A stretch of 7,161 nt of DNA, taken from IMG/VR virus record IMGVR_UViG_2534681979_000007; one strand, given 5' to 3'. This DNA is from a virus (Duplodnaviria > Heunggongvirae > Uroviricota > Caudoviricetes). A program made the translations under genes and the position numbers. How positions within the stretch are numbered: position 1 is the stretch's first letter; each line of letters opens with the position of its first letter. Shown in pieces: positions 5,001-7,161 of this stretch. Under the pieces are notes generated by a model. The model was given only the letters and a program-made list of their open reading frames with translations, ran no database searches and was not told the origin of the DNA.

Positions 5001-7161
5001 CCGGGTGAGGTGGCAATCAACCTGACAAAAGGTAACGGACCGGGGGCGCTGGCCCACGAATGGTTCCATTCACTGGATAATTATTTTGGTCGTTATGATG
5101 TTTCCACTGACGGGAAGATCACGTCAGGTGGCGACTATATGACGGAAGCACAGCGTGCCGGGCGCGTATTTAAAGACGGCAGGTATGTTGATGCGGAATA
5201 TCCGGTACGTCAGGAGGTTTACGACGCGTTTAAAGGCGTGATGAAAGCCATTAACAGCAGTGACATGTTGCGTCGTTCTGAACGCCTGGATGGCGTTCGT
5301 TCAAAACCGTACTGGTCAACGGATGTTGAAATGGCGGCGCGAGCCTTTGAGCGTTATGTTCAGGATAAAGCGCGTATGGCTGGCGTGGAGAATGATTATC
5401 TGGTCAATATCCGTAAGGCGGATGACCATGGACAGCTGGACACCTACGCTTATCCGACGAATGCAGAACTGGATGGCGGTATTCGTGAGGCATTCGATCA
5501 CTTGTTCCGAACACTGAAAACCCGTGAGACGGACAAGGGAGTTGAGTTTTATTCCCGTAAGGGCGTGACCCGCACACCTGAAGGCAATCTGATTTCGGAT
5601 GTTAACCGCAGTGCGGAAGCCAAAGGCAGTCCGGTCCCGCAGGTTGAAGCTGTTGCCCGTGGCGTGATTAGTGGCATTAAGGACAGTGACCTGAAGGTCC
5701 GCGTGGTGAAGTCACAGAAAGAGGCTGAAGCACTGGCGGGTGAATCATTCGACGGTTACGGCAAGGTGCACGCGTTCTATCGTCCGGATAAACGTGAAAT
5801 TGTCCTGGTGGCGGATAACATCCCTGACGGGCGGACCGTTCGCGAGAAGTTACGTCACGAGATTATTCACCATGCAATGGAGCATGTAGTCACGCCAGCG
5901 GAATATCAGACGATTATTAAGACCGTGCTGAAAACCCGTGACAGTGATAACGCCACCATCCGTGAAGTCTGGCGTAAGGTTGATGCGTCTTATGGTAAGG
6001 AATCACCGGAAGTGCAGGCGGGTGAATTTCTGGCGCATATGGCAGAGAAGCAGCCGATTAAATTCGTGGCGGCATGGGAGCGTGTTGTTGCCCTGGTCAA
6101 AGGGGTACTGCGTCGTACGGGGTTACTGAAGCCGACGGAACTGAACGATATCAGACTTGTTCGCGAAACCATCCGCACGTTAGGCCAGCGTGTGCGGGAA
6201 GGTTACACGCCGCGTGAGGATGGCGCGGACGCATCGTCTCAGTACTCCCGTAGCGGTAAACCTGATCCGTTCAAAGTGCCGGAAGGTGAGGGCGAGCGTT
6301 ATCGTGATGACCTTGCCAGAATGATGAAATCTCTGCGCACAACAGATTTAACGGTAAACATCGGGCGTACGCCGCCGGTATTGCGTCACCTTGGTGCACC
6401 GGATTTGCCGCTGGTTATTTCCCGCGATACTGTGCGGAAGGCCACCAATGGTGTGAAACATGTGGTGCCGATGGATGTTATCGAGAGACTACCGGAACTG
6501 ATGCACGATCCGGATGCAATTTACCGCTCAGCGACAGAAAGAAACGCGGTTGTGATGCTGCTTGATGCCGTGGATAAAAATGGTGATCCGGTGGTGTCAG
6601 CGGTACACATGAAGGCTGTCCGGTCGCGCCTGGAAATCAACAAGGTAGCATCTGTTTACGGTACAGAAAACGGGAAAAAACTGAAGAGTATGGAAATGAC
6701 CGGGTTAACGTTGTACCGGAGAGAAAAATTAAGCCGCGATAACCTTCTGCACAGAGGGCTCCAATTGCCCAAAGGGGAACATTCTTATCGCGGCTCTGCG
6801 GATAAAATACTCTATCCTGAAGATATTCGCAAGGGGCCGTATTACTCCCGCACCAGCAGTCTGACACCGGAAGAGACAATTGCATCCCGTTTTGTGCGCC
6901 AGATGCAGGATAAATTCCAGGTGCTGAAAGCGGTGCAGGAGAATATCCGTAAAACTGGCGGAAAAATAGATGACAGCAATAACGCCTATATGGCTGAAGA
7001 ACTCTTCCACGGGAAGGCGGAAAACGACCTGAACGTAATGAAGGAGCGCTACGTTCAGCCGCTGGCCAAATTGCTGGCGGACTACAAAATTGCGCAGGCC
7101 GATCTGGATGAGTACCTCTACGCCGTCACGCGCCGGAACGTAACGCGCATATTGCGAAAAT
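2037..7161 (+). CDS. Giant multidomain protein, 3'-truncated by the window edge (at least 1,708 aa): N-terminal glycine zipper, long acidic linker, HExxH zincin-like module and a second His cluster; putative polyvalent-type virion or transfer-associated effector
   Basis: Frame 3 (codon starts divisible by 3) verified codon-by-codon with no stop from 5040 to 7161, and read without stop from ATG 2037 to 5040. The track shows no complete frame-3 ORF anywhere in 2000..7161, consistent with one uninterrupted ORF. ATG 2037 is preceded by AGGGG (2023..2027) with a 9-nt spacer. An alternative in-frame ATG at 1971 follows a TAA at 1965..1967 but lacks a Shine-Dalgarno. Motifs read: GAALGAAMGAPFGAVAG (2460..2510), ALAHEWFHSLDNYFGR (5046..5093), LRHEIIHHAMEH (5850..5885). 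Confidence 0.85.
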   Translation, partial: MAAADAVLNADYSELAQSPKFQQTFLSIDADPQHAQLTDRQKMDLAKERVADEVRAQLATDPELLAVNAMAAKLGDAQLFNLVTRGTAKTVKSGIVRNATAQGAINAAQGGYSRYQENTALRETAGMDVSPWEGVADATIEGAALGAAMGAPFGAVAGYRGRRQAAEETAMRDAETVQQDDAAPQPESVDPVAQQRESMQGMNREQLLEQYADADMATEGDASAAHRREAASQLLNELDEQTKRQAVMNELKAKPRSELLEEYRRLSQKEGRTETEEQQFQAIREVIRPQQEVTPEAQSQPENAEDGNGSIYPTVRFRDPNEVRIEINGNGASRPAERIEKVRPDNRYFTDEKSAMGSDVFRNAAATGLKPSVVKKGENQYAVEMDNPAFSEDVATETINTLADGERITDADPMEQPAFMRDPRFRGFTGDDTEVQARLARGNAPTAEELVRSQMAEGDAGPTAQELTERPRLPAPGDIHPGQGYPLPGEVARTPDENQAGRGGRFTTTGEVKGQSFQKGREQAPENAAGRQGEILEGETVRRGLPSPDEQNATAPVREGLPAPESQRGVDMPQPESLPRMVRDSLPELAQQAEARRQTGDNRQTITDVPDTEVPVPVDKPSTHQQVRGAKIEDFGEEIKGAAKHRYAQLAEAMGKTLEDGEYATQPLSKLFPKPDYARLEKEGVDSDTLAMMALYRSEIPTRTSRNMQKWISIVKSGREATAGMLEGKIPAAKLADMMDSKPGLRSMSDTWKLLRTLSALQIDKASGYRVRSGVYSFVGGKRYDPPQMMYSLRDSKGRDLFFSESRDELLKKAKAYFDEQGSRERETPATSADDRITFDVYRHKASGDIFIGYGKNRQKLKGGFESARDAHDYVRTHRDELVNQVKALREVSREEQRNATNRDRTGPERRKGDVSPEQFSDAFGFRGVQFGNYVESPRRQADLNRAYDSLHDLADVLNVPTKALSLNGRLGLAFGARGKGKAAAHYEPGEVAINLTKGNGPGALAHEWFHSLDNYFGRYDVSTDGKITSGGDYMTEAQRAGRVFKDGRYVDAEYPVRQEVYDAFKGVMKAINSSDMLRRSERLDGVRSKPYWSTDVEMAARAFERYVQDKARMAGVENDYLVNIRKADDHGQLDTYAYPTNAELDGGIREAFDHLFRTLKTRETDKGVEFYSRKGVTRTPEGNLISDVNRSAEAKGSPVPQVEAVARGVISGIKDSDLKVRVVKSQKEAEALAGESFDGYGKVHAFYRPDKREIVLVADNIPDGRTVREKLRHEIIHHAMEHVVTPAEYQTIIKTVLKTRDSDNATIREVWRKVDASYGKESPEVQAGEFLAHMAEKQPIKFVAAWERVVALVKGVLRRTGLLKPTELNDIRLVRETIRTLGQRVREGYTPREDGADASSQYSRSGKPDPFKVPEGEGERYRDDLARMMKSLRTTDLTVNIGRTPPVLRHLGAPDLPLVISRDTVRKATNGVKHVVPMDVIERLPELMHDPDAIYRSATERNAVVMLLDAVDKNGDPVVSAVHMKAVRSRLEINKVASVYGTENGKKLKSMEMTGLTLYRREKLSRDNLLHRGLQLPKGEHSYRGSADKILYPEDIRKGPYYSRTSSLTPEETIASRFVRQMQDKFQVLKAVQENIRKTGGKIDDSNNAYMAEELFHGKAENDLNVMKERYVQPLAKLLADYKIAQADLDEYLYAVTRRNVTRILRK

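Follow-up and report, generated by a model that had tools for sequence, protein, structure and literature searches.

A predicted second zincin-like metallopeptidase domain in the giant polyvalent protein of short-tailed Stx phages

Polyvalent proteins of phages and conjugative elements carry LPD5, LPD1 and MuF_C as hallmark domains, and metallopeptidase (MPTase) domains with an HEXXXH motif, described as an atypical set, occur in them; autoprocessing or attack on host proteins was proposed as their role (Iyer et al. 2017, PMC5512222). Here, a 7,161-nucleotide (nt) stretch of tailed-phage DNA (IMG/VR record IMGVR_UViG_2534681979_000007; "the window" denotes this whole stretch) was analysed, in which one long open reading frame (ORF) encodes two HExxH motifs. 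The second lies in a histidine-rich segment at nt 5850-5885, which very probably encodes the active-site helix of a second metallopeptidase domain of zincin-like (gluzincin) type, predicted within a capsid-packaged polyvalent protein. The domains around the first and second motifs are termed module 1 and module 2. Residues are numbered by the window ORF, residue n being full-length residue n+244.

Two further groups of enzymes served for comparison. HExxxH is catalytically competent in DPP III (M49) and in TMCP/MATCAP, tubulin carboxypeptidases with an "EEG" motif that contains the third ligand (PMC5708649, PMC10499314). In PPEP-3, His153 and His157 bind the metal together with Glu197, which is carried by a later helix; Glu154 is the base, and the helix before that of Glu197 provides Tyr190 for the oxyanion hole. 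The Glu184-Glu185 tandem of PPEP-1 includes the ligand (PMC12828418).

The features of module 2 are as follows.
5619..6203, + strand: module 2, predicted second zincin-like metallopeptidase domain (ORF residues 1218-1412, about 195 residues), with a well-predicted core at nt 5619-6053
5772..5813, + strand: beta-hairpin ahead of the predicted active-site helix (HAFYRP...EIVLVAD), strands at model residues 52-55 and 60-64
5850..5885, + strand, frame 3: LRHEIIHHAMEH, centre of the predicted active-site helix, from conservation and model helix 71-90
5991..5993, + strand: Y1342 at the end of the helix preceding the Glu helix, conserved in 149 of 158 copies; model residue 125
6021..6047, + strand: Glu helix GEFLAHMAE, with E1353 as predicted third metal ligand and the nearly invariant E1360 (6045-6047)

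The histidine-rich segment was verified codon by codon: TTA (L) at 5850, CGT (R) at 5853, CAC (H) at 5856, GAG (E) at 5859, ATT at 5862 and 5865, CAC (H) at 5868, CAT (H) at 5871, GCA at 5874, ATG at 5877, GAG (E) at 5880 and CAT (H) at 5883. The sequence and the coordinates of all six His and Glu codons, as reported in the first-pass annotation, were exact. The motifs had been placed about 270 residues apart, which agrees with their positions at residues 1030 and 1297 (a gap of 267).

Many HExxH motifs in databases are fortuitous; a TrEMBL survey counted 151,223 occurrences against about 80,000 expected by chance (PMC3650047). Conservation was therefore taken as the real test. An exhaustive HMMER search with 210 residues around the motif was run against 1.84 billion cluster representatives and returned 376 proteins at E<=1e-3, 97 of them at E<=1e-10; a word-indexed homologue search found just 11 close fragments. 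Nearly all HMMER matches spanned query positions ~3-200 as a single block, mostly in proteins of 1,000-6,000 amino acids (aa). This block-wise matching across the 376 proteins argues for a domain of about 195 residues that is discrete and mobile.

Many proteins contained two copies of the module, often directly adjacent (P0014, P0017, P0018, P0025, P0031, P0046, P0056, P0063, P0114 and P0132); in P0025 the copies span residues 2166-2354 and 2374-2588. Apparent stand-alone versions of 240-270 aa (P0093, P0098 and P0099) were located only on contigs of 1.3-1.6 kb (L003, L004 and L005), and on L003 and L004 another called ORF abuts or overlaps the module gene. They may derive from giant genes broken up by frameshifts, and no claim is made for solo module proteins.

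Conservation was counted in an alignment of 158 module copies, which are divergent (20-40% identity). The motif core was retained throughout: H1297 is His in 156 copies, and neither E1298 nor H1301 varies in any of the 158. The other two copies have Glu for the first His (e.g. ...LREELITH...). E1353 (nt 6024-6026), 56 residues downstream of H1297, is invariant (158/158). It stands within the family motif Q-A-E-E-x-x-A-x-x-A-E, of which the final Glu (E1360) is conserved in 146 copies; the position of the first Glu, 1352, holds Glu in 132 copies and Gly in nine, and the window has G1352. W1335 is conserved in 129 copies, and the hairpin contributes Y1271 (109/158), P1273 (84/158) and A1282 (141/158). 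The invariant residues form a conserved zincin-type constellation, and HE..H together with a distant Glu, as read from the alignment, is the gluzincin signature.

The remaining His and Glu residues of the segment behaved differently. The H1302 column has 50 His and 68 Tyr; the E1305 column is Glu in 17 and a gap in 76; the commonest residues at H1306 are Asn (62), Gly (21) and Ala (16), with His not among these three. Thus, of the cluster proposed by the first-pass annotation, the HExxH core proved to be conserved across the family, and H1302, E1305 and H1306 did not. The extended HExxHHxxEH pattern is, by these columns, peculiar to the small clade of the window. H1302, E1305 and H1306 were considered as an additional or alternative metal site (a metzincin-like HExxHxxxxxH), which was rejected as a family feature, since these residues are not conserved; a clade-specific extra site there is possible but unsupported.

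The spacing of the motif also sets this clade apart. In 149 of the 158 copies the second His is at +5 and none of these has His at +4, the family motif being HE-x-x-(G 64 / A 48 / V 29)-H. HE(I/V/L)IHH occurs only in the nine copies of the window's clade, in four distinct motif versions, and the HEIIHH of the window satisfies both HExxH and HExxxH spacing. A profile hidden Markov model (HMM) was built without the window's clade. It aligned HEII-HHAM to HEvlgHyGL, with a gap of one residue in place of the small fourth one; the posterior of the deletion as placed was about 0.7-0.9. The clade has apparently lost the small fourth residue and returned to the canonical HExxH spacing. On the deletion reading, H1301 would be the family's invariant second His and H1302 its following Tyr/His. 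Alternatively, His may have substituted the small residue, leaving H1302 as the ligand; this is probably the less parsimonious course when compared with the nearest relatives (HEVIAHHGL...).

An AlphaFold2 model of module 2 was calculated from a 40-sequence alignment. Its mean predicted local distance difference test score (pLDDT) was 82.4 and its predicted template modelling score was 0.77; ten-residue block means were 89-98 over residues 1-140, and the model was poor only at 148-175. The elements are a helix (6-17), a strand (26-30), a helix (33-40), two strands (52-55 and 60-64), a long helix (71-90) and helices at 93-108, 112-125 (with the conserved Tyr at its end) and 130-143 (E136 of the model being E1353). 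HExxH occupies model residues 80-84 within helix 71-90. A disordered or non-helical setting of the motif had been named as grounds for dismissing it; the motif was found in a confidently predicted helix, where block means were in the range given above. In the model, the order of elements is the zincin layout: a mixed beta-sheet, an active-site helix and a helical C-terminal subdomain, similar to solved zincins.

With PPEP-type enzymes, module 2 shares at the level of the model an ATLF/M34-like fold and a Tyr on the helix before the Glu-ligand helix. By analogy, Y1342 and the (E/G)1352-E1353 pair would occupy places corresponding to the Tyr and the tandem Glu residues of the PPEPs. Differences are also evident. 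No sequence similarity between module 2 and ATLF, M34 or PPEP-1, -2 and -3 was detectable, and ATLF/M34 was absent from the Pfam matches of the window segment (E up to 10) and of 40 family members (E up to 1). The Tyr-Glu spacing is 7 in PPEP-3 and 11 in module 2. The PPEPs are secreted bacterial enzymes, whereas module 2 is part of a phage protein, and most of its family has an extra residue in the motif.

The HEXXXH clade of polyvalent proteins is another close comparison. HExxxH is present in 149 of the 158 family copies, and a second helix carries the Glu further downstream; a polypeptide can have several MPTase domains, and the predicted roles are the same. LPD5, LPD1 and MuF_C are encoded in the frame of the window and LPD38 in the full-length homologue. 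The locus is a late region of Shiga toxin (Stx) phages, relatives carry LPD38, LPD39, MuF_C and Sno-type or ResIII helicase domains, and the matches in BFVD were phage polyvalent proteins. In contrast to the HEXXXH clade, the window's clade reads HExxHH. Identity of module 2 with one of the 12 MPTase clades of PMC5512222 is putative, judged by their description. No Pfam model, MPTase-type models included, detects module 2.

Several results weigh against the assignment of module 2 to the metallopeptidases. No Pfam model scored above threshold on nt 5619-6203; at the motif only sub-threshold M76 and M10 matches were obtained, and the best scores (Peptidase_M76, E 0.078-0.085; DEK_C, 0.007) were both under the cut-offs. 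The sole NCBIfam match was irrelevant (16.6 bits versus a cut-off of 200). Searches of the PDB by sequence with the 210-aa segment and by profile with the 40 sequences returned nothing. The only family model covering module 2 was PHROG 616, which describes the whole protein. The predicted His-His-Glu site comes from the order of elements in the model and from the alignment, and the choice between H1301 and H1302 from the alignment. The window's clade has Gly for the first Glu of the family's EE pair. In the literature consulted, no experiment was found that demonstrates metal binding, proteolysis or processing for the giant protein, and a preprint on phage phi24B reports no fragments of its homologue gp47.

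Module 1 was mapped upstream, in the same frame.
4749..5525, + strand: module 1, predicted first zincin-like metallopeptidase domain of CLCA_X type (ORF residues 928-1186), with LPD1 as its C-terminal helical half
5055..5078, + strand: first active-site motif HEWFHSLD (H1030, E1031, H1034, D1037), with the conserved H1009 upstream at nt 4992-4994

All 27 sequences compared (the window and 26 relatives) have H1009, H1030, E1031, H1034 and D1037. In the "widely distributed" phage-type MPTase, a His ends strand 2 and an Asp follows three residues past the motif (PMC5512222). CLCA_X proteins are phage- and plasmid-rich predicted metalloproteases related to the N-terminal protease domain of CLCA (PMC3650047). 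As judged by its residue pattern, module 1 matches both this phage-type MPTase and the CLCA_X consensus. It shares with CLCA_X the HExxH..D signature and the phage/plasmid distribution; it differs in that its Asp stands three residues after the second His (HEWFHSLD), whereas PMC3650047 writes HExxHxxxD. Against NCBIfam CLCA_X (NF041907), module 1 aligned to positions 14-245 of 250 (E 1.7e-44) with 152 bits, the curated cut-off being 260. Its predicted fold is that of a zincin.

Comparison of the two modules with hhalign gave E 1.3e-4 and a probability of 54%. The hairpin and the HExxH helix were aligned, and the hairpin stretch of module 2 was paired with AHYEP...VAINLT of module 1; by this profile comparison the modules are probably distant relatives. 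Module 1 is located upstream of module 2 in all 26 relatives carrying module 1. The gap is mostly 10-70 residues, so that the pair appears to be a conserved unit. The first-pass annotation had left open whether the two motifs represent two metallo-hydrolase modules or a second metal-binding site. The former is supported: both motifs lie in separate, independently conserved domains, and both predicted folds match zincin metallopeptidases. The second motif belongs to a second enzyme-type domain and not to an additional site in one enzyme. The occurrence of two HExxH motifs had been called unusual, which does not hold, since some 36% of polyvalent proteins have at least one zincin-like domain and as many as five (PMC5512222) and the same order of modules recurs in the 26 relatives.

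The gene and its further domains are arranged as follows.
1237..1998, + strand, frame 1: N-terminal ~250 codons of the giant gene, from ATG 1237 (phrog_616 positions 1-246)
1968..7160, + strand, frame 3: central part of the giant virion polyvalent protein, 1,731 codons, open past the window end
4374..4805, + strand: LPD5 domain (ORF residues 803-946; Pfam PF18799, E 2.5e-43)
5286..5525, + strand: LPD1 domain (ORF residues 1107-1186; Pfam)
6453..6722, + strand: MuF_C domain, predicted PBECR/BECR-fold ribonuclease (RNase)-like (ORF residues 1496-1585; Pfam PF18819, E 8e-18)

From nt 40 to 7161, the window is 95-97% identical to the late region of many short-tailed Stx phages (186 phage records), among them Stx2a-converting phages, Stx2-converting phage 86 and phiSTEC801. 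Among 5,426 complete E. coli genomes, 426 also have matching prophages (best identity 97.3%). No match for the first 39 nt was present among the relatives found. In Stx2-converting phage 86 (Traversvirus), the window genes correspond to gp35 and the hypothetical gp34; gp35 is annotated as an "LPD5 domain-containing protein", has 2,783 aa and is encoded between tail/Lom genes and the integrase. The frame-3 ORF is 95-97% identical to gp35 and its relatives, and the homologue in phi24B is gp47. It matches positions 245-1974 of phrog_616 (2,793 positions, a family of unknown function). MuF_C lies downstream of both protease-type modules, and LPD38 is present in the full-length homologue. The ratio of nonsynonymous to synonymous differences per site (pN/pS), calculated against two relatives, is 0.19 for the giant gene, which is purifying selection; this whole-gene value alone is meaningful, as module 2 by itself holds just 4-5 differences, which gives no power. 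Two small ORFs that overlap module 2, 5938..6129 (+) and 5990..6178 (-), were discarded as unsupported; the gene that contains them is under purifying selection.

A 1-nt deletion splits the giant gene. At about nt 1966-1971 the window has a run of six A (GATAAAAAATGCC, window 1963-1975) and Stx2-converting phage 86 has seven; the BLAST alignment to E. coli ES5 likewise shows one A more than the window at this run, with a different flank in ES5 (...ATAC). This frameshift could be a homopolymer sequencing error, a recent inactivating mutation or a slippery run. A second difference from ES5 is CC at nt 7122, where ES5 has CCC, which leaves the last 39 nt of the window out of frame. The giant gene may be broken in this sequence, or the homopolymer deletions may be sequencing errors. 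Also relative to ES5, one base is absent at window position 64 and a compensating pair of gaps lies in a divergent patch at 326-347. Shortened versions of the gene are annotated in other phage records (PHROGs 26030 and 20690, with 992 and 939 positions).

The ORF at 175-1167 (+; listed with 330 aa, frame open from nt 64) is the counterpart of gp34 of Stx2-converting phage 86. It matches PHROG 601 (unknown function), has no Pfam domain and adjoins the giant gene in all relatives inspected. No Pfam domain was found in the N-terminal third of the long frame (window 1968-4379, ORF residues 1-804), which has long acidic low-complexity linkers, a sub-threshold Gly-zipper-like stretch at residues 162-189 and a marginal PHROG match to N4-type virion RNA polymerase proteins (phrog_2206, E 0.002). 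This third diverges most among Stx phages, its pS being 0.12 versus 0.01 in the protease modules (compared with Stx2-converting phage 86).

The phi24B protein gp47 was abundant in virions by proteomics and missing from the cryo-electron microscopy reconstruction, and a role as internal ejection protein was proposed for it (bioRxiv 10.64898/2026.04.10.717836). Abundance in virions yet absence from the ordered structure fits an internal, ejected protein. By analogy with characterised zincins, H1297, H1301 (or H1302) and E1353 of module 2 would hold a divalent metal, most likely Zn2+, and E1298 would be the general base activating the metal-bound water. Y1342 is a candidate transition-state stabiliser, like Tyr190 of PPEP-3. 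Module 2 and the adjacent CLCA_X-type module may cut the ~2,800-residue protein into pieces, either in the capsid or after ejection, and the pieces released would include the downstream RNase-like MuF_C, LPD38 and others. Following Iyer et al. (PMC5512222), autoprocessing is the best guess; alternatively, host proteins may be cleaved early in infection.

A different substrate is implied by the phi24B preprint, in which a metallopeptidase of gp47 is suggested to degrade peptidoglycan during ejection (bioRxiv 10.64898/2026.04.10.717836). Module 2 would then be a peptidoglycan peptide hydrolase that helps the ejected protein to form a periplasmic channel. The presence of the giant protein in the virion suits this proposal, and some polyvalent proteins do carry peptidoglycan-acting domains (PMC5512222). 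However, the preprint assigns the metallopeptidase to MuF-C, a domain classed as BECR-fold RNase-like by PMC5512222, and the structural neighbours of module 2 were protein and peptide hydrolases, none of the listed matches being described as a cell-wall peptidase. For these two reasons the peptidoglycan proposal was ranked low and is considered improbable.

Slightly less probable still is a zincin fold without protease activity, either as a YbeY-like nuclease or as an inactive binding or scaffold domain of the kind found at the N-termini of lethal factor, edema factor and Certhrax. Module 2 does resemble YbeY, but at the level of the fold only. The metal motif of YbeY is different and consists of His residues throughout. 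Invariance of H, E, H and the distal E in 158 divergent copies is the mark of a working gluzincin site and not a degenerate domain, and the combination of His/Glu/His/Glu with a conserved Tyr resembles PPEP-type peptidases. That HExxH arose by chance in a His- and Glu-containing helix and has no metal function, as is true of many fortuitous database motifs (PMC3650047), is extremely improbable and effectively refuted by conservation and fold: the composition of the protein (His 1.6%, Glu 8.3%) predicts 0.037 motifs in 1,731 residues and two were observed, the motif residues persist in 156-158 of 158 copies, an invariant Glu follows 56 residues on and the predicted fold is a zincin.

The preferred assignment of nt 5850-5885 to a metallopeptidase active site fits a known kind of protein, in which multiple zincin domains and the HEXXXH variant are already documented (PMC5512222). 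Three aspects appear to be new: the exact mapping, in the Stx-phage protein, of module 2 and its predicted catalytic residues; the lack of a Pfam or NCBIfam model for a HExxxH zincin family of ~195 residues that counts hundreds of cluster representatives; and the change from HExxxH to HExxHH in the Stx-phage clade. The remaining result is as the polyvalent-protein literature predicts. A more far-reaching scenario, which is tentative and rather doubtful as a whole, combines two steps: the Stx-phage clade, in a family otherwise uniformly HExxxH, reverted to HExxH by a one-step deletion of the small bulge residue and kept the neighbouring His, and the CLCA_X and HExxxH proteases form a self-processing cassette that cuts the ejected protein into effectors (MuF_C, LPD38) inside the host. 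If true, the clade would be a natural experiment in which two metal-site spacings are interconvertible in a single step.

Short-tailed Stx phages are vehicles by which Shiga toxin genes spread in E. coli, and gp47 of phi24B is an example of their largest virion protein. The mapping corrects the metallopeptidase label given to MuF-C in the phi24B preprint, as the zincin-type modules lie upstream of it, at full-length residues ~1172-1430 and ~1462-1656. In full-length numbering, the predicted active-site residues are H1274, E1275, H1278 and D1281 in module 1 and H1541, E1542, H1545 (or H1546) and E1597 in module 2. These are targets for mutagenesis, by which cutting of the protein into effectors after ejection could be tested.

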